A DNA stretch of 60,751 nt from a virus (Duplodnaviria; Caudoviricetes): positions 1 through 60,751 of IMG/VR virus record IMGVR_UViG_3300047552_001108. The stretch is one strand, 5' to 3'. A program made the position numbers and the translations under genes. The notes beneath the pieces were generated by a model that had not been told where the DNA came from, did no database searches, and was given only the letters and a program-made list of their open reading frames with translations. Positions 24,630 to 53,616 of the stretch are shown piece by piece. Position 1 is the first letter of the stretch. The number at the start of each line of letters is the position of its first letter.

Positions 24630-24632
24630 TTC

Positions 24633-33827: not shown

Positions 33828-33835
33828 TGTAGTCC

Positions 33836-34398: not shown

Positions 34399-34448
34399 TC
34401 GCGTCGCGCCAATAGAATCGCGGCAACCCAACCGACGACTGAACGCCA

Positions 34449-34787
34449 GTGCAACAGCCGGTCACACCATCAAGCGCCGAACCAAAAGCATGGGACGGAA
34501 TGGCAGAGCGCAGAGCGCCCAACCAGATCACCGCCATCGCCATCGAGCAGGCCGTTGCCCGTGGCATCCAGGCGGCCGTGTCTGACCCGGCCACATGGGA
34601 GGCAGCGGGAAAAGCGATGCGCACGCAGGCAGAGCAGTCTGCGGGGGGGTGGCTCCTGGCCGGTCTGCGTGCTGCGTTCAAGAAGCTGGCCTGGGTGGTG
34701 CTTGTGTGCGTGCTCGTCTACAACCTCGGGGGTCTGCCGGCGCTGACCGCGCTGATGAAGGGCCAGGGGTTCGGGAGCGCACCGTGA
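34449..34787 (+). CDS. Membrane protein (possible holin/antiholin)
   Basis: ERR motif and C-terminal TM segment; precedes the lysis genes. Start uncertain. Confidence 0.5.
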   Translation: MQQPVTPSSAEPKAWDGMAERRAPNQITAIAIEQAVARGIQAAVSDPATWEAAGKAMRTQAEQSAGGWLLAGLRAAFKKLAWVVLVCVLVYNLGGLPALTALMKGQGFGSAP

Positions 34788-34996
34788 AGCGCGTCCGCCT
34801 GTACGACAACTGGCGCGACATCCTCAAGCACGCCTGGAGTCTGAGGTTCATCGCCCTCGCGTTTGCTTTCACCGTGGCCGAAGTCGCGCTGCCGTTTTTC
34901 TCTGACGAGTTCCCGCCGCGCCTGTTCGGCGTCCTGTCCGGCCTGAGCGCGGCAGCGGCGTTCGTTTCGCGCCTCGTGGCGCAGAGGGACGTGTGA
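34784..34996 (+). CDS. Holin-like protein with two TM segments
   Basis: L..NWR.....AWS.R, two hydrophobic helices, RLVAQ end; immediately before the endolysin. Confidence 0.65.
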   Translation: MKRVRLYDNWRDILKHAWSLRFIALAFAFTVAEVALPFFSDEFPPRLFGVLSGLSAAAAFVSRLVAQRDV

Positions 34997-35532
34997 TGCA
35001 GCAGCAGTCGAAGCAGCGGTTCAACCCCCGCGTAAAGATCGCCGCGCTCTCCCTGAGCGCCGTTGCGTTCGTCGCCACAGCCGTTCACGAGGGCTACACC
35101 GACGAGGCCGTGATCCCGGTCAAGGGTGACGTGCCGACCTTCGGCTTCGGCATGACGACGCACTCCGACGGAACCCGGGTGCAGATGGGCGACCGGACCG
35201 ACCCCGTGTCTGCACTCAAGCGCAAGCTGGAGTACGTGCAGCAGGCCGAGGGCCGCATAAAGCAGTGCGTGACCGCGCCGGTCAGTCAGACAGAGTTCGA
35301 CCTGTTGATGGATTTCTCGTACCAGTACGGGACGGGCGCCCTGTGCCGCAGCAGCATCGTCCGACACACCAATGCAGAGCGGTATGCGGATGCCTGCAAG
35401 GCGTATCTCGAGTATCGATTCGTGGCCGGCTACGACTGCTCGACCCTGGTGGGCGGCAAGCCCAACAAGCGGTGCTGGGGCGTGTGGACGCGCCAGCAAG
35501 AGCGCCACCAGAAGTGCATGGGGCAGCTGTGA
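34996..35532 (+). CDS. Endolysin, GH24 lysozyme with N-terminal SAR-like segment
   Basis: Weakly hydrophobic IAALSLSAVAFVATAV, then EG...GDVPT.GFG.T, SQ.EFD...DF.YQYG and G.W.R...R...C. Confidence 0.88.
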   Translation: MQQQSKQRFNPRVKIAALSLSAVAFVATAVHEGYTDEAVIPVKGDVPTFGFGMTTHSDGTRVQMGDRTDPVSALKRKLEYVQQAEGRIKQCVTAPVSQTEFDLLMDFSYQYGTGALCRSSIVRHTNAERYADACKAYLEYRFVAGYDCSTLVGGKPNKRCWGVWTRQQERHQKCMGQL

Positions 35533-35969
35533 TTCAAGCCACGTTGATTGCCGTGGCCGCTGCAGGCGTGATCGGCCTCGCTGCCGGTGGCACCGCTGCC
35601 TGGAAGTACCAGGGCCATCGCTACGAACGCGAAATCGCCGAGATGCGTGCCCAGGCTGAAGCTGCCGCACGCGAACAGGAGAAGCTGCATGAAGACCGGA
35701 TTCGACAGGCTTACCGTGAAGCGACGAATCGGGAGCGCCGCGCTCGCATGGACGCTGCTGCTGCTCGTGATGCTGCTGACCGGCTGCGCGACGACCTCGC
35801 CGTTGCCGTCCAGGCAGCCCGAGATACCCCAGCCTCCTGCCCTGACCGAGCCGCTGCCCTCGCTGACGTACTCCGAGCAGTGGAAACTGAAGGTCGAGGA
35901 CTGGCGGAAACGTGCGACCGGCACGTCAACGACCTCCGCACCTTGATGCAGGCGTGGCCGGGTAAGTGA
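35529..35969 (+). CDS. Rz: Inner-membrane spanin (Rz-like)
   Basis: N-terminal TM segment, coiled coil, follows the endolysin. Confidence 0.75.
   Translation: MIQATLIAVAAAGVIGLAAGGTAAWKYQGHRYEREIAEMRAQAEAAAREQEKLHEDRIRQAYREATNRERRARMDAAAARDAADRLRDDLAVAVQAARDTPASCPDRAAALADVLRAVETEGRGLAETCDRHVNDLRTLMQAWPGK
35689..35946 (+). CDS. Rz1: Outer-membrane lipoprotein spanin (Rz1-like), embedded in the +1 frame
   Basis: Signal peptide with LLTGC lipobox and a Pro-rich mature part, nested in Rz. Confidence 0.75.
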   Translation: MKTGFDRLTVKRRIGSAALAWTLLLLVMLLTGCATTSPLPSRQPEIPQPPALTEPLPSLTYSEQWKLKVEDWRKRATGTSTTSAP

Positions 35970-36150
35970 ACCCGGCCTACAGAAAGATCGCTGCGCCCGT
36001 GCAGCCGATCATCGCCAGGGAAAACACCCAGGCGAACGCACGCAGCCAACGCGGCGGATCGTAGGGCTCGGCGGGCAGACCGCACGCTTCCGGGGTGGGG
36101 CAGGTGATGCGCCCTTGATTGCAGGGTCCAGTGCAAGACATCGCTTCCTC

Positions 36151-36414
36151 CTATCGGCCGCCCTGCAGCCGCTCGATGGTGATGTTCAGAGCGCCGAGTT
36201 CGTCCAGTTTGTGAACTGACCAGATCCGGGCCTGCCCGTGGATGCCGTTGAAGCTGCCCTGGTGGCAGTCTTTGCACAGCGCCACCACGGTGTAGTGCAG
36301 GCCCTGCTTGATGTGATGCGCGTCGCTCGGCGCAGGCGCATCGCAGACCGAACAAGGCAGCAGCTTGACCCGCTGAACGTGATCGCGCTCGGCCTTGGTG
36401 TACTTCCCGTTCAT
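36151..36414 (-). CDS. DUF968/Ref-like HNH-type zinc nuclease
   Basis: V..LPC.VC....DAHH and LC..CH.G..GIH motifs. Confidence 0.7.
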   Translation of the reverse strand: MNGKYTKAERDHVQRVKLLPCSVCDAPAPSDAHHIKQGLHYTVVALCKDCHQGSFNGIHGQARIWSVHKLDELGALNITIERLQGGR

Positions 36415-36424
36415 GCGTCTGATT

Positions 36425-36733
36425 CTATGCAGGGGTCTTGCTCTCGAACGGCTCCTTGTCGGGAAACCACTCGCTGCGTGAGCGCACGTTGTCGACGGTG
36501 CCGGCCTCGCAGCACACGGTGACGGTGTGGACGTCCCTGTGGACGCCCGGGATGCCCCAGAACTCGTAGGCGCCGATGCCGTAGTCCACCGTGGTCAGTT
36601 CCGCCGGTTGGCCGCAGGCCTCGCAAAGCACATCGTCGTGCCACGCTTTGCAGTCACCACCACCCATACGGTGCGGGAAGCGGTACGACGAGCAGTGGCA
36701 GACGTGCTGCATCTGCTTGCGTTGGTGGTTCAT
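36425..36733 (-). CDS. Cys-rich hypothetical protein
   Basis: C.C..Y.FPHR.G.G.C, CEAC and DYGIG.YEFWG..G...CC. Confidence 0.6.
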   Translation of the reverse strand: MNHQRKQMQHVCHCSSYRFPHRMGGGDCKAWHDDVLCEACGQPAELTTVDYGIGAYEFWGIPGVHRDVHTVTVCCEAGTVDNVRSRSEWFPDKEPFESKTPA

Positions 36734-37083
36734 GCCGGCTCCCCCTGGTCCTCGACGTCGGCGAGGTAGATCGCATCGGTGACGCACAGCACGCTGGCGC
36801 CCGGTGTGCGCTCGATGTAGGCGTTGGCCTGGGCCATGCCGTCCTCCGTGTTCTTGAACACCGCCATGCAGCGGTAGCGCCGGCCCTGGTGGCGCACCAT
36901 GGGCGCGTCGTAGTTCACCCCGGGCGTGCCGTACAGGCTCACCAGTTCCTTTGGGTCGAGCCGACCGGCTTCTTCCGCCGCGCAGGGCGGGCAGATGCTG
37001 TAGCCGGTGTCCCGATTCCAGTGCTGCTGCCACCGGCCCGCGTAAGCCCCGCAGACGCAGCAGTTCATGTGGTGTTGGGTCAT
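36730..37083 (-). CDS. Zinc-finger hypothetical protein
   Basis: CCVCG...QHWNRDTGY.IC..C; AAGGAG RBS. Confidence 0.65.
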   Translation of the reverse strand: MTQHHMNCCVCGAYAGRWQQHWNRDTGYSICPPCAAEEAGRLDPKELVSLYGTPGVNYDAPMVRHQGRRYRCMAVFKNTEDGMAQANAYIERTPGASVLCVTDAIYLADVEDQGEPA

Positions 37084-37268
37084 TTCTTCTCCTTGCAGTG
37101 GATGCACCCACAGGGGATGCCGAGGCGGCGTTGCACGCGGCCGATGCTCCAGGCGTCGTCAGCGGCTCTTCGGCTCACACGGCTCTCCACCATCAGCCGC
37201 ACGCGAGTGGCTTGATCGTCGTGATATCCGGCGATGCGGATGTGTGCGAGGACGTCAGCACGCTTCAT
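37080..37268 (-). CDS. Hypothetical protein
   Basis: Coupled ORF ending in CGCIHC. Confidence 0.55.
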   Translation of the reverse strand: MKRADVLAHIRIAGYHDDQATRVRLMVESRVSRRAADDAWSIGRVQRRLGIPCGCIHCKEKK

Positions 37269-37597
37269 CCTGCAGCCCCCCGTGGTCCTGCCTTGTGGTG
37301 CGCAAGGAACTCCATACGGTTGGAAAACACTGTCGCGTGGTCGGCTGGCAGGCGGTGTTCCTCTGGCTGCCACTTGCATGTGTTGCGTCGGTAGATGGCT
37401 AACCCGGCGCAGCGGCTGCCTTCGTGGACGTGGCACTCCACTACTTCGTCCGAGTGGCAGAGGTTGGCGTACTGCTCTGGTGTTGCGCCGCCAAGCCACC
37501 CAGCCAGCGCGTCACGCCGCATCGGACAGTCATTGCACGGCTTGGAAAGTTGCTTAGTGGCTGGTGTGGCCTCTCCTCTGGCGATCAGCTTTCTCAT
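37265..37597 (-). CDS. Cys/His hypothetical protein (DUF6283-like)
   Basis: PC.DCP.R.D...G, CH and CAG motifs. Confidence 0.6.
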   Translation of the reverse strand: MRKLIARGEATPATKQLSKPCNDCPMRRDALAGWLGGATPEQYANLCHSDEVVECHVHEGSRCAGLAIYRRNTCKWQPEEHRLPADHATVFSNRMEFLAHHKAGPRGAAG

Positions 37598-37746
37598 ACA
37601 GCCCCCCTGACGGCCACAATCGCCGCCGAAATGCCGATGCAGGCGCAGCACACCACGACAGTGATAATCCACATGGCTGCCGTCCTGCGTTGATCGTGCC
37701 GTCGGGCACGCTCGATGTCGGCCCAGGTCTGCTTGTACTGGTTCAT
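37594..37746 (-). CDS. Small membrane protein
   Basis: Single TM segment; coupled. Confidence 0.5.
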   Translation of the reverse strand: MNQYKQTWADIERARRHDQRRTAAMWIITVVVCCACIGISAAIVAVRGAV

Positions 37747-38114
37747 TCCATCACCTCCGGCCGACCAGCCAGCCCGCAATAGCCTCGGCGGCGCGAATTG
37801 ACCAGGGCCTCGCTTTCAACCCAGCAGGCATCGCGGTCCTCGTCGGCAGGAACAAACTCCATGCCTGGGTTCATCCCTGCGGGGCGGTCCGGCTCGATTT
37901 TGGCCAACGGGTCATTGCAGACCACTCTGACGACGTACAAGGGCGGCCCCCACCATCGCCACATTGCGCACACGTTTGCGCGGCAGTTCGCCGTTTTGCC
38001 GGTGCGGTTGTACGTGACTCCAGTGAGCGCTCCGTCCCCAATGCCGTGGCCTGTGATGTGGGGCAGGCGGCTCATGGGGCACCACAGTTTGTTTGCTTGT
38101 TCGGGGGTGTGCAT
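37743..38114 (-). CDS. Cys-rich hypothetical protein
   Basis: WCP..R, C....CAMWRW and GYCGLAG motifs. Confidence 0.65.
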   Translation of the reverse strand: MHTPEQANKLWCPMSRLPHITGHGIGDGALTGVTYNRTGKTANCRANVCAMWRWWGPPLYVVRVVCNDPLAKIEPDRPAGMNPGMEFVPADEDRDACWVESEALVNSRRRGYCGLAGRPEVME

Positions 38115-38329
38115 CACGCCGACACCTCCGTGAAAGTGCAGAAGCTGCGTCGCACGGTGACCGTTTCGCCTGCCTCGCGCTCGTTGTAGTCGAGCATGGC
38201 CTGGGCCTTGCCATCGGTGATGAGAACGTCCGCCCAGGTGTCATCCACACGTTTCAGGACGCCCGTGAAGATGCCCTTGCGGCTGCTGTTGACGCGGTAC
38301 GTCGCGCCGATTCGAAGTTCTGTGGTCAT
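38114..38329 (-). CDS. Hypothetical SH3-like small protein
   Basis: Coupled beta-rich ORF. Confidence 0.6.
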   Translation of the reverse strand: MTTELRIGATYRVNSSRKGIFTGVLKRVDDTWADVLITDGKAQAMLDYNEREAGETVTVRRSFCTFTEVSA

Positions 38330-38336
38330 GGTGGTA

Positions 38337-38552
38337 TCAGCGGTACAGGGTGACGATGTGGCCGAAGTGCTTGTCGAAGGTGGCGACCAGATGCTCGTAG
38401 TCGCCTGCCTTCATCTCGTCGACGATGTTTTTGTCGTCCAGGCCGAGTTCACGCGCCAACCTCTGCGCGGTTCCAAGCAGCACGAAGGCGTTGCCATCCG
38501 GGCCAGTCAGGTCGATCTCGATGCCGCGCTGCGGCTTGCGCTTGATGACCAT
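38337..38552 (-). CDS. Conserved phage hypothetical protein
   Basis: IDLTGPDGNAF.LLG.A and EM..GDYE.L...F...FG motifs. Confidence 0.75.
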   Translation of the reverse strand: MVIKRKPQRGIEIDLTGPDGNAFVLLGTAQRLARELGLDDKNIVDEMKAGDYEHLVATFDKHFGHIVTLYR

Positions 38553-38740
38553 CACTGCCCCCTTGCGCGTTGCAAGCACGCAAGTCGGGCATCGCCGTCC
38601 AGCAGATAGATGCCGTTCCGCTTTTCCAGGCACCGCATCTCGGCCAGCGTTTGCGCGTCCTGGGGGCCGAACATCACCGCGTAGAACAACACGGCTGCCA
38701 GCACCAACAGCAGCAGGCTGATTCGCTTGGCGAAGCTCAT
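38552..38740 (-). CDS. Small membrane-anchored protein
   Basis: N-terminal TM segment and two Cys. Confidence 0.5.
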   Translation of the reverse strand: MSFAKRISLLLLVLAAVLFYAVMFGPQDAQTLAEMRCLEKRNGIYLLDGDARLACLQRARGQ

Positions 38741-39348
38741 CACGCGCTCCAGATCACGGTGAAATCGTCGGTCGCGCCCGAGGCCAGGACGTGCTCGATG
38801 GTCTCGATGACGATCATCAAAGCGGTCTCGTACCAATCGCGCTCGCCTTCAACGCGCTCCTGCTCGAACACCAAGAACACGCCCGGTCCCGACCACTTCT
38901 GTTCGCCAGCGATGGCCGCCTTCAACTTCGCGCCCTTGACCCAAAAGTGGCCGCTGCTGTTGCTGTAGGCCTCGAACGGCCGCTCCTTCTCGGCTTCGCT
39001 CGCAAACGCCGCCAGGGCTTCTCGTTCGCTCGCGCACTTGGCCGATGCCGAGATGAACGTGACGTAGTGGCCGCCGGCAGGCGACTTGAGGTGCATCCGG
39101 TACTGGTCCAGTGCGCTTTCGGCGCGGACCTTCGCTTCATGCCAGTTCGGCTTGAACTGGTAGGCGTCTTGCGGCGGCTGGAAGATCGCGTAGAGGTCGG
39201 GGCACCCGCAGCGCTCCATCACCGAGTTGAACCCGCTGCCGTTGTAGCTGCTGCGGAAATAGCCGACGCGGAAAACATGGCCCGGGTCGCTTTGCGGCAC
39301 GAGTTCGACGGTTTCGTTGTTGCGCTTGAGGTAGACATCGAGTCCCAT
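38740..39348 (-). CDS. Hypothetical protein, first gene of a leftward island
   Basis: MGLD.YL and GYFRSSYN..G motifs; AAAGGAG RBS. Confidence 0.75.
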   Translation of the reverse strand: MGLDVYLKRNNETVELVPQSDPGHVFRVGYFRSSYNGSGFNSVMERCGCPDLYAIFQPPQDAYQFKPNWHEAKVRAESALDQYRMHLKSPAGGHYVTFISASAKCASEREALAAFASEAEKERPFEAYSNSSGHFWVKGAKLKAAIAGEQKWSGPGVFLVFEQERVEGERDWYETALMIVIETIEHVLASGATDDFTVIWSA

Positions 39349-39374
39349 TTGCTTCTCCTTTGGTTGCCGGTGCG

Positions 39375-39446
39375 TATCACCGTGGTGACACTGTTACTCG
39401 GTCGGCGCCTTCTTGCAAGCTCTTTCTATCACCGCCGTGATAACCT
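39375..39446. promoter_or_regulatory. Divergent control region: two operators, a leftward promoter and a rightward extended -10
   Basis: TATCAC-CGTG-GTGACA (39375-39390) and TATCAC-CGCC-GTGATA (39427-39442); minus strand TTGCAA-17 bp-AACAGT; plus strand TGaTAACCT 6 nt before the MuF ATG. Confidence 0.7.
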
Positions 39447-39452
39447 CGGCCC

Positions 39453-40577
39453 ATGCTCGGCCGATACACCCCACTCCGTCCCTTGTGCGACCCACGGGCC
39501 ATCGTGTTCAAGTCCCGGAGCGATGACCTCTCGGAAGTCGAGGCCCTGGCCGCCAAGCTCGAACCCGGCCTTGCCAAAGCGATCCTCGACGCCCTAACGG
39601 CCCAGGGCACCGCAGTGCCGCTCGATGCGCTTGTGGCGGCCCTGGAGTCCGGCGACGTGGGGAAGGTGGTGGCGCTGCTGGACAGCCCGGAGGTGACCGC
39701 CGCTTTCGCCAAGCTGACCGCACCGCTGCAGCAGGCCGTTTATGCGGGCGGCGCGTTGGGAGCGGGGACGATTGCCACGCAGATGCGGGGCGTTTCGTTC
39801 GTGTTCGACCAACTGAACCCGCGCCTGCTGACGTGGCTGCAGACCTACAACCTGGGTCTCATCCGCGAAATCTCACAGCAGACGAAGGAAGGCATCCGCG
39901 AATACTTGTTGGCCGGCATGACGGCGGGGAGGAACCCCAAGGACGTGGCCCGGGAGGTGAAGACTGTCATTGGCCTGACGGATCGGCAGGCCAGGGCGGT
40001 CTACAACTTCCGGCGCGAACTGGAAACCTTCCACCTCCGCACCTCGGCCGGCGGGTACAAGCTGGGCGGCAAGGTCGACCGTGTGAATGGCACCCAGGTG
40101 CTGCGCCCCGATGAGGATGGGCTGCCCCAGGACGGAATCACCGAACGGCGGCTGCGCGACTTCCGCTTCGACGGCCAGCTGCAGCGCTCCATGGCGGCGG
40201 GCAAGCCGCTGTCGAAGGAGCAGATCGACAAGATGGTCGCTGCGTATCAGCGCAAGTACCTCGCCTACCGCAGCCGCACCATTGCACGCACTGAGGCCAT
40301 TCGCACCACGAACAAGGGCGTCGAGGACTCCTGGCGGCAGGCCATCGAGGCCGGGAAGGTGCCGGAGGAACTGGTGCGCAAGCGGTGGTTTGTCACCAGG
40401 GACGAGCGCCTGTGCAAGGTGTGCGGCCCGATCCCGGGCCTGAACCCGCAGCGTGGCGTGACGATGGGGGCACCGTTCAACACCACCAAGGGGCCAATGA
40501 CACTTCCGCCTGCGCACCCGAACTGCCGATGCAGCGTCGTTTTCCGGGTGTGGGAGCCAGAGCAGTTGAAGGGCTAG
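39453..40577 (+). CDS. Minor head protein, MuF / SPP1 gp7 family
   Basis: RSRTIARTEA, K.W.V..DER.C..C and PPAHPNCRC motifs. Confidence 0.88.
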   Translation: MLGRYTPLRPLCDPRAIVFKSRSDDLSEVEALAAKLEPGLAKAILDALTAQGTAVPLDALVAALESGDVGKVVALLDSPEVTAAFAKLTAPLQQAVYAGGALGAGTIATQMRGVSFVFDQLNPRLLTWLQTYNLGLIREISQQTKEGIREYLLAGMTAGRNPKDVAREVKTVIGLTDRQARAVYNFRRELETFHLRTSAGGYKLGGKVDRVNGTQVLRPDEDGLPQDGITERRLRDFRFDGQLQRSMAAGKPLSKEQIDKMVAAYQRKYLAYRSRTIARTEAIRTTNKGVEDSWRQAIEAGKVPEELVRKRWFVTRDERLCKVCGPIPGLNPQRGVTMGAPFNTTKGPMTLPPAHPNCRCSVVFRVWEPEQLKG

Positions 40578-40741: not shown

Positions 40742-40776
40742 CCGGCGAGAATATCGCCATTCCTGTGAGAACCGCC

Positions 40777-41412
40777 ATGACACCCGACCAGTACGTCCAA
40801 CTCCGTGACCGGATCGCGCTGCTGAAGGCGCGGACGACCACTTTGCTCATTCGAAAGGCCGATGACAACACCTTCCGGCCACCTGAATCCGTCCGATCTG
40901 CTGCGCGGCGTGGCCTCGAATTGCGTGAGAAGTGGAAGCGTGGCGGCCTCGACAACAGCGAGGCGTCCGACCAGGGCATCGGCAGCGGGGTGCAGCGTGC
41001 CGTCAACCTGAAGAACGGCGACGCGATTTCGCTGGCGACGGTGAAGCGAATGGCGGCCTTCTTCTCGCGCCACCAGAAGAACTACCGCCCTGGCGACAAG
41101 GAGTCGGACGGCGGCCCCACCGCCGGCACCATCGCGTGGCTGCTCTGGGGCGGCAACGCGGGCAAAGCCTGGGCTGAAGGCGTCCTGCGCGGCATCGAGA
41201 AGGTGAACGCCGGGTACACGCCCAGCACCGGGTGGAAGCCCAACGACGGCAAGCCGGAGTTCATGGCCTACGCGAAGGAAGGTGAGGGCGGTGGTGCACC
41301 TGCCGCGCCTGCTGGCGGCCCGGACGCGGGCGACGTTCATGTGCCGTCCACGGAGTGGGGCGGCAAGAAGCCCAAGAAGAAGGGCAACACCAACGAAGGA
41401 GTCTCGAAATGA
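40777..41412 (+). CDS. Conserved phage head-region protein
   Basis: PP..V...ARRGL, G..RA..L..G..IS..TVKRM..FF.RH and G.IAWLLWGG.AG..W motifs. Confidence 0.75.
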   Translation: MTPDQYVQLRDRIALLKARTTTLLIRKADDNTFRPPESVRSAARRGLELREKWKRGGLDNSEASDQGIGSGVQRAVNLKNGDAISLATVKRMAAFFSRHQKNYRPGDKESDGGPTAGTIAWLLWGGNAGKAWAEGVLRGIEKVNAGYTPSTGWKPNDGKPEFMAYAKEGEGGGAPAAPAGGPDAGDVHVPSTEWGGKKPKKKGNTNEGVSK

Positions 41413-41825
41413 GCGAAGAACTCGCACGCATCCGCACGCTGCGCCAGAAGCTGAACAAGGCACTCACCACCACCGGCTCGGGCGGCATGCAGGCGTTTGC
41501 CACCATGCTGTTGGAGGCCGCGCCGCTGGCGCACTTGCACCACTTTGCCGTGGAAGGCGTGGGTAGCGACGCCGCTCACCGTGCGCTGGCCGACCTGTAC
41601 GACGGGCTGCCCGATTTGGTCGATGACCTCGTCGAGTCATACCAGGGCGTCTACGGACGCATGCCTGCGCCCGCCGGAAGCCCGCTGGAGTTTGCAAAGG
41701 CGCTGCAGGCCGCTGTCCGTGCGCAGCGCTCGACGCTGCCGCAAGACAGCGAGTTGCAGAACGTCGTCGACGAGATCGCAACGCTGGTCAACCGAACCGT
41801 CTACCGACTCGAAAACCTGAAGTGA
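41409..41825 (+). CDS. Dps/ferritin-like four-helix protein (DUF5856-like)
   Basis: H..H.......AAH.AL..LY..L..LVD.LVE.YQG..G and SELQN.VDEI..L...T.Y.L..LK. Confidence 0.7.
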   Translation: MSEELARIRTLRQKLNKALTTTGSGGMQAFATMLLEAAPLAHLHHFAVEGVGSDAAHRALADLYDGLPDLVDDLVESYQGVYGRMPAPAGSPLEFAKALQAAVRAQRSTLPQDSELQNVVDEIATLVNRTVYRLENLK

Positions 41826-41853: not shown

Positions 41854-44800
41854 ATGAGCGAACACCTCACCGCGACGGCCATCGCCGTCAAGCTCGCGCT
41901 GCAAAAGGCGCGTCTCGAAGTTGCAAAGGCCTCGTTCGGGGCCGTCAATCGCTGGCCGGCCGGGTCGTCCAAGGGCGGGCAGTTCGCCCCCAAGGGCGCG
42001 TCCGGCAATAGCGCCCAGCAGTTGGGTCTAGGCGGCAACACTTGGAAGGAGAGCGGGTGGGCAGGCTCCGGCATGTGGAGCAAGCCGAAAACGCCGCCTC
42101 CTGGGGCCAAGCAGCACCCGCAGAAGGACGAAAAGGGCAACCCGGTCATCGTCAACTACCCGACGCCGGCCAGCCCTGCCTCGACTTGGAGCAACCCCAA
42201 GGCCGTTGCCACGTTCACTCCTGGCGGCAAGACGCCCGAGGTGCTCAACGGCGTGCCCTTCAAGTCGTGGACTCCACCGAAGGCTGGGTGGGCCGCCGTC
42301 AGTGGCACCAATGAAAAGTTCGACGAGGACTTCCCGTTCGAGCCGCACCCGACCAAGAAAACCGGGGCCGGCGTGATCATCTTGGAGCCGGACGGCCGCG
42401 TGTGGCTCACCAAGCCAACCAACGAGTTCGGCAACTACAAGCAGACCTTCCCCAAGGGAACTGCCGAGTCCGGCCTGACGCTGCAGCAGAACGCCATCAA
42501 GGAGGCCTGGGAGGAAACCGGTCTCAAGGTGCAGATCGTCGGCATCGCGGCCGACATTGAGCGCGACACCTCAAAGGCCCGGTTCTACATCGCACGCCGC
42601 GTCGGTGGCACGCCGAAGGACATGGGCTGGGAGTCTCAGGCGCTGCGGCTGGCGCCGCGCAAGCAGGCCGCAGAACTGCTGAACCGTTCGCACGACAAAG
42701 CGCTGCTGAACGACATCCTCGACGAGATGGGGGTGCGCAAGGCCAAGGACGCCGGCACGAAGGAGTCGGGCAAGCCTGGGGCATGGCAGTTCCAAGAGCG
42801 TTGGCCCGCCGGTTCGTCGTTGGGCGGACAGTGGAAGGCGATGGGCGCCGATGGCATCACCGCGCCGCCGAAGATCGCGGGCGGTCTTGATGGCGCGAAC
42901 TCGATCTACCAGAAGGCCGCCAACCTCGCGCACGAATGCACGCAAGGTTCGCCGACGCCCGACCAACTCCAGAAGATCATCGACAAGTACGCGCCGTCGG
43001 CGGCCAAGTTCGCCTCCGGTGCCAAGGCCTCGTCCCATGTGAAGTGGGGCGCCCAGGTTCACCAGTACGCCACGCAGGCCATGGCCGACTTCAAGGCCAA
43101 GGGCAGCGCAACGGCCACGGCCGACAAGCTGCAAGGCCCGCAGAAGCTGTCCGCCATGACCTACGCGGGCGGTAAGCCTGGGGGCAGCAACCCGGGCGGC
43201 ATGTACGCCGACGCCGATGGCAAGTGGCTGGTCAAGGGCAGCAACTCCGGCGACGCCACGCCGCGCAGCAAGAACGAGGTGCTGGCCTCCAAGCTGATGC
43301 TCGCCGTGGGCGCCGGTGCGCCGGACATGAAGCTGGTGGATCTCGAAGGCAAGCACGGCGGCGGCATCGGCGTGGCCTCGAAGTGGGTGAGCGGTGGCGT
43401 TGCGTTCGACGCCAAGAATCCGGCCCACTATGCGGCTGCCCAGGCCGACTTCGCTGTTCACGCTTGGCTGGCGAACTACGACGTGCTCGGCATGAGCATG
43501 GACAACACCCAGATCGTGGGCGGCAAGGCCGTCAACATCGACCCGGGCGGTGCCCTGCTGTACCGCGCCCAGGGCGCACCGAAGGGCGACACGTTCAAGA
43601 CCACCGCCGACGAGTGGGACTCGCTGCGCGACCCGACCATCAACGCCAACGGCGCCAAGGTGTACGGGTCGATGACCGCCTCGAAACTCGCGGAAAGCGC
43701 TGAGAAGCTCAAGGCCATCGACGACGCCGGCATCAAGAAGCTGGTGGACACCTATGGCCCTGGTACGCAGGCCGAGAAGGACGCACTGACCTCAAAGCTG
43801 ATCGCTCGCAAAGCCGACATCTTGGCTCGTGTGGCGAAGCTGCAGGGCACGGTGGCATCCACACCCGCGCCCGCGCCGGCAGCGGCACCTGCGCCCGTTT
43901 CAGCCCCCGCGCAGACCCAGACCATCCTGGCCGAGAAGCTGACTTTCGTTGGCGGAGGATCGGACAAGTTCTGGCAGGTCGGCGTGGTCGGCACCAAGGT
44001 CGTCACGCAGTGGGGCAAGAACGGCACCAAGGGCCAGCAGACGTTCAAGGAGATGGGCAGCGCGTCAGCCGCCGCGAAGGCCGCCAGCAAGATGTGGCTG
44101 GAGAAGAAGGAGAAGGGCTACAAGGACGCAGGCTACGTCGACATGACGGTTGATTTGCCGGCGAAGCCAGCCCCTGCGCCCGCAGCCGCTGCTCCCGCTG
44201 TTTCCGCTCCTGCTACGGCCGTCGCCAAACCTCCGCTTCCGACGTTCACGAGCATTCACAAGGAGAAGTACAAGGCCGTTGCTGAACTGATGAACCGCAT
44301 GAGCGCGGCGGAACTCGCGGGCGCCGTGCAGTCCGCGTATGGCAAGCAGGGCAGCAAGTTGGTGTTCGGCTCCGGGTCCACCACGGTGACGACCAACAAC
44401 CCGCCCAAGAGCGACGACGGCAAGGCCCTCTACAAGTTCTATCAGGGCCTCAAAAACGCGGCAGCCACCCCGCCTGCTGCCGCTCCCGCCACGTCATCTG
44501 CCGTCGTTGAGAAGCCGGCGAACTGGCCTCTGCCAGGGACCAAGAAGTTCTTCACCGGGTTGGCAGGTGAGGCCGAAAAGCTACACGCCGACGGCAATCT
44601 CGCCGACCTCAAGTTTCTTGCCACCAACTGGAACCCGAACACGGCCAACGGCAAGGTCATGTCCGCGTACCACGCCAAGCTGGTGGCCGACCTTCAGAGC
44701 AAGCAGGCCACACAGACCATGGCGACCGTGCAGGCCGCCCAGGCCGCCGTTTCGCATCCGGTGTCCGCTCCTGCCAATGGCACCGCTCCGAACGGTGTGC

Positions 44801-46164
44801 CGATGCCGGACTTCCAGAAGTTCAAGCTGCCGGCCATCAACAGCAACGCGCCGTCGCACAACGCCAAGGTCGACAAGATCGCCGACCTCGCTGGCAAGGG
44901 CGACGTGAAGGGCCTGCTGTCGCTCAACTACGGCACCAACAACTACGCCAAGAAACAGGTGCAGCTTGCGAACGATGCCCTGGCCGCGCTCGGGTCTCCG
45001 TTCGCAGTGACCGTAGGCCAGAAGCAGAACGCGCACCCGGCGCTGACAGGTGGTGTTCCGCCGCTCAAGGTCCAGCAGGCAGCCGCTGTTACGGGCCAAC
45101 AGGCGCCCGCGCCCCACCCGGCCACCCAGGGCAAGCCCGACATGACCAAGCTCGACACGAGCAAGGCAGTCGCGCCTCCAAAGCCTCACTTCGACAAGTC
45201 GTCGAAGGCATGGGTGAACGAGTCGAACAACAAGTTGGCTGCCGAAATCGCAGCCAAGTTCGCTGCGGGCGACTACCTCGCCCTGCAGACGATGAAGTAC
45301 CAAGAGGTCGACAAGGACACGGGCAAGGCCGGTGGCTTCAAGCACATGTCGGAGCACCCGGCGAAAGACCTGAAGGCGTACTTTGACGCCTCGCTGACGG
45401 TCATGCGCGAGGTGGCGTATCCGCCGAAGCCGCTCAAGGTGTTCCAGGCGCAGCACGCCAACAGCGTAAAGGCCATCGCGGCTGCGTTCCCGTCAAAACC
45501 GTTCGGCACTACGGTCGACAAGGTCGCCAGCAACGAGAAGGTCGGCTTCTGGGTGGCGCTCGGCAAGGTCGACGACATTTCGTCTATCACCCCGGGCAAG
45601 ACGATGAAGGTGTCGAGCGCGGACGAGGCCAAGGCGTACTCCGACTACCAGAGCAAGATCACGCCGCTGGCCAAGGCCTTCATCAACGGCATCCAGTCGT
45701 CCGGTTCTTACAACGACCTCTTCCGTGACGGCAAGAAGACCGTGCCGCAAGGGTTCCCGGGCGCAGGGCACACGCTGGCCGAGGTCGCTCAGGCTGCCGC
45801 CGCCTACGCCCAGACAAAACCCGCCGGCACGCGCATCACGCGGTGGCAACACATGTCGGCGGACATGGTCAAGAAACTGGAATCTGCCGGCCCAGGTACT
45901 GTGCTGCAGGCCACGGGTTCGATGTGCTGCTCGAAGTCAGACACAGCCACAAAGGCGTTCGGCCCGCACAAGATCACCATCGTCTACGCAGATGGTGCGA
46001 AGGCAGTGGACTCTTTCGGCTCTGGCAACTATTCCGGTGAGCAGGAGGTGACGACGCTGCCCAACGCCCGGTTTGTGGTGCTGAAGGTCGGCAAGCAGAC
46101 CAACGGCAATGCCGAAGTCACTCTGCTGATGCTTCCGCCCGACCTTGGCATCAAGAAGCCATGA
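41854..46164 (+). CDS. 1436-aa multidomain protein: Nudix hydrolase, PI3/4-kinase/HipA-like domain, WGR domain, C-terminal ADP-ribosyltransferase
   Basis: Nudix box PKG...AIKEAWEETG (42451-42522); GGSNPGG..VK..NE.LA..L..WLANYD..DN..IDPGG (43180-43560); SDKFW.V...V.TQWGK.G..GQ..K..KGY (43933-44130); R..GSMCCS..EQEV..P...F.V (45830-46090). Confidence 0.8.
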   Translation: MSEHLTATAIAVKLALQKARLEVAKASFGAVNRWPAGSSKGGQFAPKGASGNSAQQLGLGGNTWKESGWAGSGMWSKPKTPPPGAKQHPQKDEKGNPVIVNYPTPASPASTWSNPKAVATFTPGGKTPEVLNGVPFKSWTPPKAGWAAVSGTNEKFDEDFPFEPHPTKKTGAGVIILEPDGRVWLTKPTNEFGNYKQTFPKGTAESGLTLQQNAIKEAWEETGLKVQIVGIAADIERDTSKARFYIARRVGGTPKDMGWESQALRLAPRKQAAELLNRSHDKALLNDILDEMGVRKAKDAGTKESGKPGAWQFQERWPAGSSLGGQWKAMGADGITAPPKIAGGLDGANSIYQKAANLAHECTQGSPTPDQLQKIIDKYAPSAAKFASGAKASSHVKWGAQVHQYATQAMADFKAKGSATATADKLQGPQKLSAMTYAGGKPGGSNPGGMYADADGKWLVKGSNSGDATPRSKNEVLASKLMLAVGAGAPDMKLVDLEGKHGGGIGVASKWVSGGVAFDAKNPAHYAAAQADFAVHAWLANYDVLGMSMDNTQIVGGKAVNIDPGGALLYRAQGAPKGDTFKTTADEWDSLRDPTINANGAKVYGSMTASKLAESAEKLKAIDDAGIKKLVDTYGPGTQAEKDALTSKLIARKADILARVAKLQGTVASTPAPAPAAAPAPVSAPAQTQTILAEKLTFVGGGSDKFWQVGVVGTKVVTQWGKNGTKGQQTFKEMGSASAAAKAASKMWLEKKEKGYKDAGYVDMTVDLPAKPAPAPAAAAPAVSAPATAVAKPPLPTFTSIHKEKYKAVAELMNRMSAAELAGAVQSAYGKQGSKLVFGSGSTTVTTNNPPKSDDGKALYKFYQGLKNAAATPPAAAPATSSAVVEKPANWPLPGTKKFFTGLAGEAEKLHADGNLADLKFLATNWNPNTANGKVMSAYHAKLVADLQSKQATQTMATVQAAQAAVSHPVSAPANGTAPNGVPMPDFQKFKLPAINSNAPSHNAKVDKIADLAGKGDVKGLLSLNYGTNNYAKKQVQLANDALAALGSPFAVTVGQKQNAHPALTGGVPPLKVQQAAAVTGQQAPAPHPATQGKPDMTKLDTSKAVAPPKPHFDKSSKAWVNESNNKLAAEIAAKFAAGDYLALQTMKYQEVDKDTGKAGGFKHMSEHPAKDLKAYFDASLTVMREVAYPPKPLKVFQAQHANSVKAIAAAFPSKPFGTTVDKVASNEKVGFWVALGKVDDISSITPGKTMKVSSADEAKAYSDYQSKITPLAKAFINGIQSSGSYNDLFRDGKKTVPQGFPGAGHTLAEVAQAAAAYAQTKPAGTRITRWQHMSADMVKKLESAGPGTVLQATGSMCCSKSDTATKAFGPHKITIVYADGAKAVDSFGSGNYSGEQEVTTLPNARFVVLKVGKQTNGNAEVTLLMLPPDLGIKKP

Positions 46165-46219: not shown

Positions 46220-46738
46220 ATGACCAAAGAATCCATCGAAGGCAGCGCGGCCCGAGCGGCGGACCGAGGGCGCGACCAGCTTTTCGGCGATGCCTTGCCG
46301 GACCACGCGCTCAACAGCCTCACGGCGGTGGAGGCGGTGGTCCGCAGCTTCGCCGAGAAGGTTGCGGACGTTCGCGCCCGGTACAACGCCGACAAGATCA
46401 CGGACGCACAGGCCCGTGACGAGGTGGAGGTATTGGCGCAGAAGTACGCGGACATGTTCATGGGCAAGAGCAGCGAGTACGCCGCTCTCCCGTGGAACAC
46501 GCCGGAGCAGCTTGGCGCTTACCTCGCCAACGTCATCGAGGGTGGAACAGCGCCGGAAACGGCGGCCCGTGACTTCCTGCTGTACGTCGCCGCACAACTG
46601 CTGCAGATCATGGTCGAGCATGAGGACGCCAAGATCGACGACGAGGTGGCGCAATTCCGCCTCGGCGCACTGATCGAGGATGCCGTTCACGCATTCCTTG
46701 GCCTGCCGAACATCGAAATGCCCGAGGACGATTCCTAG
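46220..46738 (+). CDS. Acidic helical hypothetical protein (candidate immunity/partner)
   Basis: D/E-rich 172 aa directly downstream of the ART-bearing gene. Confidence 0.65.
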   Translation: MTKESIEGSAARAADRGRDQLFGDALPDHALNSLTAVEAVVRSFAEKVADVRARYNADKITDAQARDEVEVLAQKYADMFMGKSSEYAALPWNTPEQLGAYLANVIEGGTAPETAARDFLLYVAAQLLQIMVEHEDAKIDDEVAQFRLGALIEDAVHAFLGLPNIEMPEDDS

Positions 46739-46748: not shown

Positions 46749-46822
46749 GTGATGTTCGTCCGGTGAGAATCACGGACGAAACACTCACCAACGTGCCGCC
46801 TCCGGGCGGCGTTGTTGTTTCT
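46749..46822 (+). terminator. Tandem hairpins / terminator between the cargo cluster and the protease gene
   Basis: TTCGTCC-g-GTGA-gaa-TCAC-GGACGAA stem, then GCCGCC-tccg-GGCGGC-GTTGTTGTTTCT. Confidence 0.5.
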
Positions 46823-46856
46823 GACGCGGCACAATCCTGGAGAAACGGAGATTGCC

Positions 46857-47249
46857 GTGTTTCACATCCATTTCCAGTTCTCCAAGGCCGATACCACCGG
46901 GCGCTTTGTGCGCGGGTGGGCAAGCGTCGTCTCGACCGGCGGCGTCGCGGTGACAGATCACCAGGGCGATATCATCACCATCGATGACATTCGCAAGGCC
47001 GCGCACAAGTTCATTTCAGACGCCCGCATCGCAAAGGCGATGCACGCCGGCCAGCCTGTGGGTGAGGTCGTCGAGAGCGTGATCATCGATGACGATTTCG
47101 CCAGGGCCACGGGCATGGCGGACGAGCGGCGCGGCTGGTGGATCGGTATGGAGATCCACGATCCCAACGTCCGTGAAAACGTCCGCAAAGGCAAGCTCAA
47201 GGCATTCAGCATCGGTGGCCGAGGCCGCCGTATTCCCGTGGAGTCGTGA
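46857..47249 (+). CDS. Prohead serine protease, XkdF/S78-like (His- and Ser-containing part)
   Basis: V.GWASV, D.QGD.I, AMH.G..VG.VVES, GWWIG and G.LKAFSIGG; GGAG RBS before GTG 46857. Confidence 0.85.
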   Translation: MFHIHFQFSKADTTGRFVRGWASVVSTGGVAVTDHQGDIITIDDIRKAAHKFISDARIAKAMHAGQPVGEVVESVIIDDDFARATGMADERRGWWIGMEIHDPNVRENVRKGKLKAFSIGGRGRRIPVES

Positions 47250-53269: not shown

Positions 53270-53616
53270 TCGAGTTCGCCAAGCACCGCTTCAAGCAGGT
53301 GCAGGTGGTCGGTAATGCGACGGTGGCCGACCACCTCGCGGTTGTCGCCAAAATCAAGGGGCGCAAGCTCGACGAAAATGCCCCGCAGTTGCCGCGAGAG
53401 ATGCGCTACCTGTGGGGCATTTTCCTGTCGCTCCACAACAGGCGCGGATCGAACGGCTTTGGACCGACCCCTCTTGCATGGTCCGAGATGGAGGCGTTTT
53501 GTCGGTTGACCGGCACGCCGCTCGACCCGTGGGAGGTGGAGGCAATCTGCGCACTGGATGAGGCCTATCTCGACGCCTCGGAAAGTGTGACCGACGTAGG
53601 GGCTGCGCATGGCTGA
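53239..53616 (+). CDS. Tail assembly chaperone extension (GT-like), reached by a probable -1 frameshift
   Basis: -1 frame is open from C-AAT-TTT (53239-53245); hairpin TCAGGCCT/AGGCCTGA; LW..F..L...R...GFG..P....E..A......L..WEV..I..LD motif. Confidence 0.7.
   Translation, partial: QFYSGLVAGLIEFAKHRFKQVQVVGNATVADHLAVVAKIKGRKLDENAPQLPREMRYLWGIFLSLHNRRGSNGFGPTPLAWSEMEAFCRLTGTPLDPWEVEAICALDEAYLDASESVTDVGAAHG

Follow-up and report, generated by a model that had tools for sequence, protein, structure and literature searches.

A predicted polyvalent effector protein with Nudix, kinase-like, WGR and ADP-ribosyltransferase domains in the head-gene module of a temperate tailed phage

A gene in the head module of a viral DNA of 60,751 nt (the window, i.e., the whole stretch of DNA that was analyzed) probably encodes a phage "polyvalent" effector, in which several host-directed enzymes are borne on one 1436-aa chain and delivered with the DNA; we give this reading a probability of roughly 60%. 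The protein itself is a genuine, uncharacterized variant of the polyvalent kind. A first-pass annotation of the sequence had proposed a single large ORF, placed between the genes for MuF and the prohead protease and carrying Nudix, kinase-like, WGR and ADP-ribosyltransferase (ART) segments. ORF analysis confirmed the first of these points, the placement is correct and the four domain calls hold up under Pfam or fold tests (Table 1). The same annotation viewed the protein as a packaged and injected toolkit, for which packaging and injection stand as predictions that are favored by the head synteny, by lineages in which the kinase-like and ART pair is fused to MuF or minor capsid protein 2, by the labels of homologs in Yersinia phage fHe-Yen8-01 and by Acb1 inserts in relatives.

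Gene, neighborhood and relatives

The reading frame opens with an ATG that has GAAGGA 7 nt on its 5' side, and its GC3 of 0.85 against a GC2 of 0.49 is shared by the adjoining genes. The interval between MuF and the protease also holds three small genes, and MuF is a separate gene in this phage, unfused to the polyvalent protein. The window contains an integrase gene, which indicates that the phage is temperate.

Table 1. Features of the polyvalent gene and its surroundings in the window
Feature	Position (nt)	Strand	Evidence or remark
Integrase	4464-5528	-	
MuF-like head morphogenesis protein	39453-40577	+	phrog_3517, E 1.4e-65; PF04233, E 4.3e-10
Small conserved gene, MuF-polyvalent interval	40765-41412	+	phrog_2859; homolog in the same place in 8/12 viral loci
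Small gene, MuF-protease interval	41355-41825		
Predicted polyvalent effector gene (P0001)	41854-46164	+	single ORF, 1436 aa
RWPxG..GGQF motif, copy 1, residues 33-44	41950-41985	+	at least one copy in 116/120 listed relatives
Conserved extension before Nudix, residues 78-165	42085-42348	+	118/120 listed relatives
Nudix hydrolase domain, residues 169-277	42358-42684	+	PF00293, E 4e-11; box 42457-42525
Conserved linker, residues 296-430	42739-43143	+	117/120 listed relatives; second motif RWPxG..GGQW at 42799-42834
Atypical protein-kinase-like domain, CtkA/HipA/PI4K branch, residues 431-665	43144-43848	+	AlphaFold2 (AF2) model and conserved columns
WGR domain, residues 697-759	43942-44130	+	PF05406, E 1.6e-12; PDB 2ra8, E 9e-8
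Four related ~80-aa repeats	44221-45438	+	X1 44221-44493, R1 44506-44733, R2 44806-45048, R3 45181-45438
C-terminal R-S-ExE ART domain, residues 1196-1436	45439-46161	+	AF2 fold; E-x-E at 46039-46047
Small acidic protein P0121, 172 aa	46220-46738	+	proposed cognate partner of the ART domain
Prohead serine protease, S78/XkdF type	46812-47249	+	PF14550, E 6.1e-17; head maturation protease PHROGs

At least 188 relatives, mostly on contigs of ~60 kb, share the Nudix and kinase-like core; domain counts refer to the 120 of them that were listed. Among these, the kinase-like domain is present in 120 and the Nudix domain in 118. The combination, unfamiliar at first pass, is thus common in metagenomic phages, and 27 of the 120 also have the WGR domain (23 by BLASTP), with 93 lacking it by Pfam. 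The variable domains in the relatives are WGR, Acb1, zeta toxin, ChaB and a second ART; the anti-CBASS domain Acb1 lies between the Nudix and kinase-like domains in 8/120 listed relatives according to Pfam, and the insert was confirmed in all three relatives that were rescanned.

The order MuF ... polyvalent gene-small acidic gene-protease-scaffold-capsid is conserved: MuF is found on the 5' side, and protease, scaffold and capsid on the 3' side, in nine of nine viral loci that reach far enough both ways. The same head context recurs in three of four genome loci with the full architecture (L016, L017 and L024); L018 begins inside the polyvalent gene, with only its downstream side visible. Elsewhere the kinase-like and ART domains form a pair fused directly to head proteins, namely, to MuF (Thioalkalivibrio locus; P0131, P0152 and P0189) and to Phage_min_cap2, minor capsid protein 2 (Acrocarpospora locus), and Gordonia phage Sixama shows the order portal gene, kinase-like gene, ART gene.

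Domain architecture and catalytic residues

The N-terminal part combines short motifs with conserved segments flanking the Nudix domain. We propose that the RWPxG..GGQF motif might be a head-targeting or anchoring signal; split homologs, described below, carry short N-terminal motifs of similar makeup. The extension before the Nudix domain gave no match in a family search and recurs in the Nudix protein of Aeromonas phage ST4, which stands alone; the linker following the domain gave no match in family or Atlas searches. The Nudix domain scores 43.5 bits against PF00293 (cutoff 21.1) and matches the Ap4A hydrolase 3i7u (E 5e-8 with the single sequence, 2.7e-10 with a profile). Its box, G202-x5-L208-x7-K216-E217-x2-E220-E221-x-G223-L224, is noncanonical at two positions, with L replacing the first E and KE replacing RE, exactly as had been read at first pass. 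The variant is family-wide, with L in 110/117 and K in 116/117 relatives, a degree of conservation that speaks for selection and against decay, and the three Nudix glutamates are retained in 117/120 listed relatives.

Single-sequence Pfam and NCBIfam searches did not name the kinase-like segment (HipA_C reached only E 0.13, with 12.3 bits against a threshold of 30.5). Because this segment and the ART segment of the window protein both fall below every Pfam and NCBIfam threshold, the two calls depend on structural models and on profiles built from relatives. The AF2 model of the kinase-like segment (pLDDT 95.4) adopts the fold seen in the atypical kinases CtkA, CotH, PI4K and HipA and matches CtkA in Foldseek with an E value of 1.6e-6; a VIA alignment to CtkA covers 219/244 residues at a Z score of 17.5 and an rmsd of 3.2 Å. 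The best structural matches are Helicobacter pylori CtkA (Z 17.5), CotH (13.7), Legionella MavQ (13.3), PI4K type II (12.9) and HipA/HipT (11.7), with which the domain shares the element order Gly loop, Lys, Glu, catalytic Asp/Asn and metal-binding Asp at an identity of only 10-16%. Each motif listed for this segment in the first pass maps to alignment columns with little or no variation among relatives, namely, K441/G444 of the Gly loop, K461 (VK), E475 (NE), H536/W538/N541/D543, D550/N551 and D563 (IDPGG). In the relatives, K441, K461, E475, N541, D543, N551 and D563 are invariant, and the catalytic columns are invariant in sets of 105 and 67 relatives. Weak Pfam matches to HipA_C or HipA_2 are obtained with some relatives. 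The domain belongs to a large family that has no Pfam model, forms 3697 clusters in a representative library and usually adjoins an ART. The modeled fold does not discriminate between protein, lipid and nucleotide substrates.

The WGR domain, which scores above the Pfam cutoff and thus bears out the earlier call, has Pro/Ala-rich linkers on both sides. PARP-type enzymes likewise carry a WGR domain and a NAD+-using ART on one chain, but the ART of the window protein is of the R-S-E toxin type rather than the H-Y-E type of the PARP catalytic domain, the WGR domain lies ~430 residues away from it and most relatives lack the WGR domain. The four repeats that follow were related by profile-profile comparison (R1-R3 probability 96%, R2-R3 92%, R1-X1 91%, R1-R2 77%), the pairs R2-X1 (44%) and R3-X1 (18%) being weak. 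The model of R3 is a small α/β unit, and copies of the repeat are also found in the giant ART proteins of phages ST4 and fHe-Yen8-01.

The C-terminal domain belongs to the C3/VIP2 fold class of ARTs. Its AF2 model (pLDDT 94.1) matches C3bot (E 8e-10, TM 0.65 normalized by target), Tre1, Plx2a, VIP2, ExoS and CDTa, as well as many viral ARTs fused to MuF, portal or minor capsid proteins, and the family profile matches VIP2 with an E value of 3.9e-6. R1330 and S1360 are nearly invariant, and E1396 and E1398 are invariant, across 47 sequences, in agreement with the R/S/E-x-E motif and the E-x-E position recognized earlier. The E-x-E motif is typical of arginine-directed ART enzymes. Structure searches of the kind that the first-pass annotation had put forward as a test of its calls returned CtkA and HipA kinases for the kinase-like segment and ART folds for the C terminus.

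The noncanonical Nudix box and the ~400 residues taken up by repeats and Pro/Ala linkers could be accommodated by a mainly structural protein, an internal head or scaffolding-like component whose enzyme-like domains are decayed relics. We regard this as very unlikely, as all three enzymes keep their catalytic residues with little or no variation across ~50-120 relatives with 40-80% identity, and conservation extends to the L/K variant of the Nudix box. On the basis of these conserved residues, the Nudix, kinase-like and ART domains are likely to be active.

Comparison with packaged effectors of other phages

PMC5512222 and PMC9503650 predict ARTs and Nudix proteins that are packaged in the head, as well as polyvalent proteins coinjected with DNA. 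According to the former (Iyer, Burroughs, Anand, de Souza and Aravind 2017), polyvalent proteins resemble the window protein in being large and multidomain, in occurring in portal-terminase phages among late or head genes, in combining several effector enzymes and in their predicted travel with the DNA; ART is their commonest protein-modifying domain. In the text of that paper, "WGR" and "HipA" are absent and "Nudix" occurs once. The polyvalent kinases that it reports from Verrucomicrobia, Chlamydia and Bacteroidetes are of a Ser/Thr/Tyr-type clade without the C-terminal lobe, whereas the domain found here is of the CtkA/HipA/PI4K type. Family searches of the window protein found no MPTase-type or other processing peptidase and no LPD Pfam domain. 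T4 Alt, an arginine ART of the R-S-E clade, is packaged in the head and delivered with the DNA (PMC5512222 and PMC9503650). It shares the fold class of the window ART, and the NAD-arginine ART of Shigella phage SP18 is among the BFVD matches; however, Alt carries one enzyme and follows a packaging and processing route of its own, and the likeness is one of fold class.

Closer counterparts are found in ~90-kb myoviruses, which split the same parts into an ART-small protein-Nudix gene trio (Yersinia phage fHe-Yen8-01 gp129-131, Aeromonas phage ST4 gp109-107 and Pseudomonas phage Dolphis gp117-119). The ST4 proteins show identities of 43% in the kinase-like domain, 48% in the ART, 46% in the Nudix domain with its N-terminal extension and 33% in the small acidic protein, with the repeats also in common. 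Those of fHe-Yen8-01 show 39% in the kinase-like domain and 50% in the Nudix protein, and its ART domain has no alignment to the window ART among the alignments listed. P0121 is homologous to ST4_108 and fHe-Yen8-01 gp130 (hhalign probability 96.5%). Unlike the window phage, where all parts except the small protein are fused in one chain inside the MuF-protease interval, the myoviruses have three genes in another order, without WGR, located in the myovirus backbone away from that interval, and the Nudix box of ST4 is canonical. All three products of the fHe-Yen8-01 trio are annotated as "particle associated," a GenBank label on a distant myovirus behind which no paper was found.

Packaging in the window phage itself is supported indirectly, and Nudix and Acb1-type activities would also be useful late in infection. 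The protein could on these grounds be a late, unpackaged enzyme complex acting only in the producing cell, for instance, by blunting abortive-infection or NAD+-depletion responses at a late stage; its head-module location would then reflect timing only. We consider this improbable, given that the three split homologs all bear the particle label, that other lineages fuse the kinase-like and ART domains to MuF or minor capsid protein 2 and that the MuF-protease position is constant in every complete viral locus.

The exchangeable ART cassette and a proposed course of action

The small acidic gene lies directly 3' of the polyvalent gene in all but one of 12 viral loci, the exception being a locus that ends before this position. 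Its product showed no detected similarity to any family in Pfam, the library searched. The ART half of the polyvalent gene and this small gene are swapped together as one cassette: the DNAs of L006 and L008 are 97% identical as far as approximately residue 669 of the polyvalent protein and once more right after the small gene, and the stretch between these points, which holds the ART half and the small gene, has been exchanged, with both alternative C termini being ARTs. Across nine loci, which are not independent, small-protein identity tracks the ART type (37-44% versus 27-33%), and the N-terminal half stays at 57-64% identity whatever the ART type.

Exchange of a C-terminal toxin and a small gene as a cassette is described for MuF polymorphic toxins (PMC5576092), and the same pattern for Bxa, a prophage ART that is bound by its immunity protein Bsi (PMC11699363). 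Like MuF toxins and Bxa-Bsi/BAH, the window system has a head-linked, exchangeable C-terminal ART with a small neighboring gene that travels along, but here MuF is encoded separately, the constant part consists of enzyme domains and the small-protein partner is putative. These parallels, together with the temperate nature of the phage, would suit a phage-borne polymorphic toxin, with the ART as the exchangeable toxin and the small gene encoding its immunity protein, released at lysis or carried by the particle to act against competing bacteria or otherwise benefit the lysogen. Such a role appears unlikely to us: the conserved part consists of two further enzymes, Nudix and kinase, rather than a trafficking domain, Acb1 inserts are sensible only within an infected cell, strictly lytic-looking 90-kb myoviruses have the same parts and the particle label on the small protein's homolog is unusual for an immunity protein.

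On the preferred reading of a DNA-delivered polyvalent effector, the protein would be produced late, alongside the head proteins, and loaded into the prohead beside MuF and portal, possibly via the RWPxG..GGQF motifs. The adjacent S78 protease may cut it at the Pro/Ala-rich linkers, and it would enter the next host cell with the DNA. The C3/VIP2-like ART is predicted to ADP-ribosylate host targets using NAD+, and the CtkA/HipA-like kinase to phosphorylate host proteins. The Nudix domain would hydrolyze a nucleoside-diphosphate-X compound; candidates are an immune signal (a dinucleotide or one derived from ADP-ribose), an RNA cap and ADP-ribose attached to protein. The first-pass suggestion that the ART might write modifications which the Nudix domain removes stands as a hypothesis. 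The WGR domain might be an optional accessory that binds nucleic acid. The small acidic protein could act as the cognate partner of the ART, either an inhibitor or a chaperone that spares the producing cell, and may be packaged along with the polyvalent protein.

Weighing against this reading, MuF is unfused here, the protein has no recognized processing peptidase domain, the Nudix box is noncanonical and the exchangeable ART-small-gene cassette of this temperate phage resembles a polymorphic toxin-immunity pair, which also fits a role against competing bacteria.

Domain architecture of the polyvalent protein

The polyvalent gene is a single open reading frame, as the first-pass annotation had read it, running from an ATG preceded by a ribosome-binding-like GAAGGA and with a GC3 of 0.85 like that of the adjoining genes. 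Its one chain bears a Nudix domain, a kinase-like domain, a WGR domain, four repeats, and a C-terminal ADP-ribosyltransferase (ART) domain, and its three catalytic centers are apparently intact.

Features of the window discussed in the text, with nucleotide coordinates
Feature	Coordinates	Strand	Remark
dNMP kinase gene	3679-4233	+	
Integrase gene	4464-5528	-	
MazG-like nucleotide pyrophosphohydrolase gene	8900-9343	-	
Gene for ParB-like nuclease fused to DNA methyltransferase	21791-23119	+	
Small terminase, large terminase, and portal genes	24624-27693		
Portal-MuF interval	27694-39452		~11.8 kb
Tail-fiber protein genes	30453-33434		within the interval
MuF gene	39453-40577		start of head-tail module
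DUF5856 protein gene	41355-41825	+	between MuF and polyvalent genes
Polyvalent gene (P0001)	41854-46164	+	1436 aa
N-terminal motif, first copy	41950-41985		
N-terminal motif, second copy	42799-42834		
Small acidic protein gene (g46220)	46220-46738	+	172 aa
Tape measure protein gene	53609-56902		end of head-tail module

Two of the domains called at first pass, Nudix and WGR, exceed their Pfam gathering scores: PF00293 at residues 169-277 (43.5 bits versus 21.1; E = 4e-11) and PF05406 at residues 697-759 (47.8 bits versus 22; E = 1.6e-12). The canonical Nudix box follows the consensus GX5EX7REUXEEXGU. That of the window protein, G202-x5-L-x7-K-E-x2-E-E-x-G-L, retains the three metal-binding glutamates and has leucine for the first E and lysine for R, exactly the variant noted at first pass; among the 117 of the 120 listed relatives with a recognizable box, the leucine is present in 110 and the lysine in 116. 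The top sequence matches of the domain are Ap4A/Ap6A hydrolases and RNA pyrophosphohydrolases. Single-sequence searches of Pfam and NCBIfam gave only subthreshold noise for the kinase-like, repeat, and ART segments, PHROGs searched with the whole protein named the Nudix and WGR regions and nothing else, and residues 296-430 had no usable match in the ESM Atlas.

The AlphaFold2 model of the kinase-like segment (pLDDT 95.4, pTM 0.93) retrieved Helicobacter pylori CtkA from the PDB as the top Foldseek match (E = 1.6e-6, TM 0.61-0.67), followed by PI4KIIIbeta, HopBF1, CotH, and HipT. VIA-align likewise placed CtkA at Z 17.5 (rmsd 3.2 A over 219 of 244 residues), with CotH at 13.7, MavQ at 13.3, PI4KIIalpha at 12.9, and HipA at 11.7; 81 of 1000 chains reached Z >= 8. 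Of the 119 listed relatives, 67 were chosen for shortness and aligned over residues 425-668; in the resulting alignment of 68 sequences, K441 and G444 of the Gly loop, K461 at the end of strand 3, E475 in helix C, N541, D543, N551, and D563 are invariant, and H536, W538, and D550 are almost so in this and a separate alignment with 105 relatives. These folds and invariant catalytic columns uphold the kinase-like call made at first pass, and in the predicted model the residues are ordered and placed as in an active kinase. The fold, predicted to be bilobal and of the CtkA/HipA/PI4K branch, does not by itself indicate a substrate class. The Pfam HipA_C model matched the window protein below threshold (12.3 bits versus a cut-off of 30.5; E = 0.13); 31 other family members include 5 with weak matches to HipA_C or HipA_2, of which P0204 alone exceeds the cut-off.

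Residues 790-1195 contain four related repeats of ~80 aa, X1, R1, R2, and R3, linked by hhalign probabilities of 96% (R1-R3), 92% (R2-R3), 91% (R1-X1), and 77% (R1-R2), with weak pairs at 44% (R2-X1) and 18% (R3-X1). R3 is modeled by AlphaFold2 as a small alpha/beta unit packed ahead of the ART domain. Single-sequence family searches, and the ESM Atlas with residues 785-1195, returned no named family for the unit; phages ST4 and fHe-Yen8-01 have copies in their giant ART proteins as well.

The model of the ART region (pLDDT 94.1) matched 137 PDB chains at E <= 0.001, with C3bot the best (E = 8e-10, TM 0.65 normalized by target) and Tre1, Plx2a, VIP2, ExoS, Vis, and CDTa among the others, and among viral models it resembles numerous ARTs that share a chain with a MuF, portal, or minor capsid protein. 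An alignment of residues 1105-1436 with 46 relatives, drawn from 67 sharing the same C-terminal type, matched VIP2 by sequence profile (E = 3.9e-6 to 1e-5); in it E1396 and E1398 are invariant and R1330 and S1360 almost so, and the Arg, Ser, and E-x-E positions fall on strands 222-228, 254-256, and 294-296 in model numbering. PF03496 did not match the window C-terminal segment at E <= 10; relatives of the same ART type pass its cut-off of 23.4 bits (P0012, 25.9 bits; P0018, 28.0 bits). In both fold and conserved Arg, Ser, and E-x-E, the domain corresponds to the R-S-E ARTs of the C3/VIP2/Alt clade, in agreement with the C-terminal ART proposed at first pass. Its cooccurrence with WGR admits a PARP-like reading, as PARPs carry a catalytic domain beside WGR; however, the PARP domain is of the H-Y-E type, and the window protein has no PARP Pfam match. 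The toxin type of the ART led us to drop this reading. The first-pass finding and its domain calls hold.

Relatives and head-gene context

A word-based search recovered at least 188 relatives of 789-2513 aa, many on contigs of 57-68 kb; the listed set comprises 120 of them. Compared by BLASTP against this set, query included, segments of the window protein matched as follows: the kinase-like segment in all 120, the Nudix segment and its N-terminal extension in 118 each, the linker at 296-430 in 117, R2 in 113, R3 in 90, R1 in 73, the window ART type in 68, WGR in 23, and X1 in 11. Precomputed Pfam matches in the same set comprise PF05406 (WGR) in 27, PF03496 in 44, and PF23474 (Acb1) in 8, and in 106 the last 90 residues include an E-x-E with an aliphatic residue or Thr immediately after it. 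From these counts, the core consists of Nudix and kinase-like domains, almost every C terminus is an ART, with WGR and Acb1 as optional insertions. Among 11 relatives rescanned with Pfam, all 3 with Acb1 have it between the Nudix and kinase domains, and zeta toxin/AAA_33, ChaB, ART-PolyVal, and DUF5824 are found in one apiece. In the phage collection, megablast with the polyvalent gene gave no match, and none of the 21 records matched by tblastn covers >= 80% of the protein; no cultured phage with the fused form was found there. A single-protein scan of the genome collection found no relative, and a scan with a family alignment (A2) returned 15 loci.

The motif RWPxG..GGQ[FW] is present once or twice in 116 of the 120 listed relatives and occurs in the window only as the two copies in the polyvalent gene, where it reads RWPAGSSKGGQF. 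It is a candidate head-targeting or anchoring signal. The N-terminal basic-aromatic-Gly motifs of the split homologues described below are different, yet similarly placed: the myovirus Nudix proteins have a KGY.R.DG.YV-type motif and gp73 of Gordonia phage Sixama has HPRGADGRFI. Proteins with the same effector domains in three phage lineages, as compared across the window and loci L001, L002, and L031, thus carry short motifs of one general pattern: a basic/aromatic stretch, then Pro or Arg, then Gly, and farther on Gly, a basic residue or Gln, and an aromatic residue.

The IMG/VR record of 60,751 bases is a complete virus (100% by CheckV) with a G+C content of 63.6%. Its integrase, replication genes, terminase and portal genes, tail-fiber and lysis block, and head-tail module indicate a temperate siphovirus-like phage. 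The nearest cellular relatives of the polyvalent gene in the genome collection scan lie on contigs of a Hyphomicrobiales metagenome-assembled genome (MAG), and a Hyphomicrobiales host, which would fit the G+C content, is possible. As the first-pass annotation had placed it, the gene lies between MuF upstream and an S78/XkdF-type prohead protease downstream, an interval that also holds three small genes. The order MuF ... polyvalent gene, small acidic gene, protease, phrog_13547 gene, scaffold, and major capsid protein is kept in all 9 of the 12 viral loci that extend far enough on both sides. Four genome loci have the full architecture: head genes flank it on both sides in two from the Hyphomicrobiales MAG (L016 and L017) and one on a Thalassobaculaceae chromosome (L024), and the fourth, from a Gammaproteobacteria MAG (L018), begins within the gene, so that the downstream side alone is visible.

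In L018 (positions 1-3707), the polyvalent gene is interrupted; the open frame stops at ~670 aa, beyond which the segments for the repeats and the ART follow on the same strand. A frameshift, a misassembly, or division of the gene could account for this. The portal-MuF interval of the window holds a BppU_N-like protein, a 624-aa protein, tail-fiber proteins, endolysin and Rz-like lysis genes, and a minus-strand block of small genes; at viral loci L011 and L013, the same distance is just ~2.3 kb. The interval looks like a block inserted or rearranged within the head module. The DUF5856 protein (PF19174, E = 1.1e-13; phrog_858, labeled starvation-inducible regulator) is encoded by a gene overlapping the end of the preceding one by 58 nt, and in the viral locus comparison it was absent from the queries matching related loci.

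A putative ART cassette and a kinase family that travels with ARTs

The small acidic protein has no Pfam match. In 11 of 12 viral loci, the next gene after the polyvalent gene encodes a homologue, and ST4 has one between its ART and Nudix genes. Profile comparison also links the small protein to fHe-Yen8-01 gp130 (probability 96.5%, E = 8.6e-10), for which BLASTP found nothing. The DNA of viral loci L006 and L008 agrees at ~97% identity as far as about residue 669 of the polyvalent gene, and the agreement resumes just past the stop of the small gene; the stretch in between, comprising the ART half and the small gene, has been replaced. Both swapped C termini are ARTs; PF03496 is passed by those of L005, L008, L009, and L011 but not by the window type (L006). 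Identity of the small protein to that of the window is 37-44% with the window ART type (5 loci) and 27-33% with the other ART (4 loci) in this small sample of 9 nonindependent loci, for which the ART value of L018 was taken from the genome-locus comparison because its frame is interrupted. The N-terminal half of the polyvalent protein is 57-64% identical across all 9, and capsid identity is unrelated to the split by ART type. By analogy with Bxa and Bsi, as described in PMC11699363, we read the ART and the small protein as a cassette of an ART with its putative cognate partner. A complex prediction for the two scored 0.01 against a mark of 0.32, without controls, and speaks neither for nor against binding.

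A full HMMER scan with the kinase-like segment retrieved 3697 clusters (50% identity) with E <= 1e-3; tightening the threshold to 1e-10 leaves 2311, and to 1e-30, 650. The majority occur in proteins of >1000 aa. Of 31 newly found members, hand-picked for their range of lengths, 19 have an ART-type Pfam domain, 3 MuF, and 4 Nudix, and 10 have no Pfam match; an ART-type domain also occurs in 6 of 9 genome-locus frames with the kinase-like domain. Massilia and Collimonas encode kinase+ART proteins of ~645 aa, Thioalkalivibrio a MuF+kinase+ART protein, and Acrocarpospora a Phage_min_cap2+kinase+ART protein, and Gordonia phage Sixama has the order portal, kinase-like gene 73, gene 74, and ART gene 75. 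We recognize a large atypical-kinase family without a Pfam model that usually travels with an ADP-ribosyltransferase. In Streptomyces (L027, positions 1-12648) and Pseudonocardia (L028, positions 1-12072) genomes, the kinase-like domain lies within open frames that span the entire 12-kb locus (>4000 aa) and also hold Scabin-like ART, glutamine deamidase, and Nudix domains; these may be giant polymorphic or polyvalent toxins.

Relationship to known systems and possible functions

Like the polyvalent proteins of Iyer et al. (2017), the window protein combines multiple effector domains and is found in a late/packaging context in a phage with portal and terminase; it belongs to the known class of phage polyvalent or head-packaged effectors. 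Within our limited coverage of the literature, we did not find its architecture described: the texts of PMC5512222 and PMC9503650 contain neither "HipA" nor "WGR," neither Nudix nor ADP-ribosyl appears in the Mecenats66 paper, and a limited search found no paper joining HipA-like, ADP-ribosyltransferase, and MuF. MuF polymorphic toxins carry an N-terminal MuF on the same chain, whereas here MuF is a separate gene and P0001 has no PF04233 match. The ~90-kb myoviruses ST4, fHe-Yen8-01, and Dolphis encode as three genes the parts fused here, namely, a giant ART with a kinase-like domain and repeats, the small protein, and a Nudix protein that likewise has the N-terminal extension. The fHe-Yen8-01 record labels all three as particle associated, which counts as annotation only since a limited literature search found no paper on this phage.

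We infer that the polyvalent protein would be synthesized late and loaded into the prohead, where the neighboring protease may cut it at its Pro/Ala linkers, and that it would enter the recipient cell with the DNA, as suggested indirectly by MuF fusions elsewhere and the fHe-Yen8-01 annotation. Following delivery, the ART and kinase would modify host proteins, and the Nudix domain would hydrolyze an NDP-X compound. The presence of this distinct Nudix clade beside the anti-CBASS nuclease Acb1 in some relatives suggests nucleotide immune signals or caps as its substrates and hints at immune-signal degradation. A limited search for Nudix enzymes in antidefense returned papers on NAD+ reconstitution and nothing else. 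Such rebuilding of NAD+ in the manner of NARP1 was set aside because NARP1 enzymes belong to other folds.

A more ambitious proposal, to which we would give roughly one chance in eight, is that the ART, the HipA/CtkA-like kinase, and the Nudix domain constitute one obligate pathway writing a composite, host-irreversible mark and restrained by the small acidic protein as a copackaged inhibitor. Two unrelated backbones would have retained such a pathway whole, the 60-kb siphoviruses as a fusion and the 90-kb myoviruses as separate genes, and the inhibitor would be exchanged along with each ART subtype. As one possibility, the Nudix domain could trim arginine ADP-ribosylation to phosphoribose, or the kinase could phosphorylate it further. 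If true, both the modification chemistry, delivered by the phage, and the family of ART inhibitors would be new. More generally, virion-delivered enzymes act ahead of any phage gene expression and so decide passage past the first defenses of the host; to our knowledge, very few have been characterized. The window protein stands for at least 188 relatives and offers three leads past the first-pass annotation: the kinase-ART pairing, the ART-partner cassette, in which a small acidic protein is exchanged with the ART domain much as in a toxin-immunity pair, and the conserved variant Nudix clade. Elsewhere in the window, the ParB-methyltransferase, MazG-like, and dNMP kinase genes are further candidates for nucleotide-level interaction with the host.
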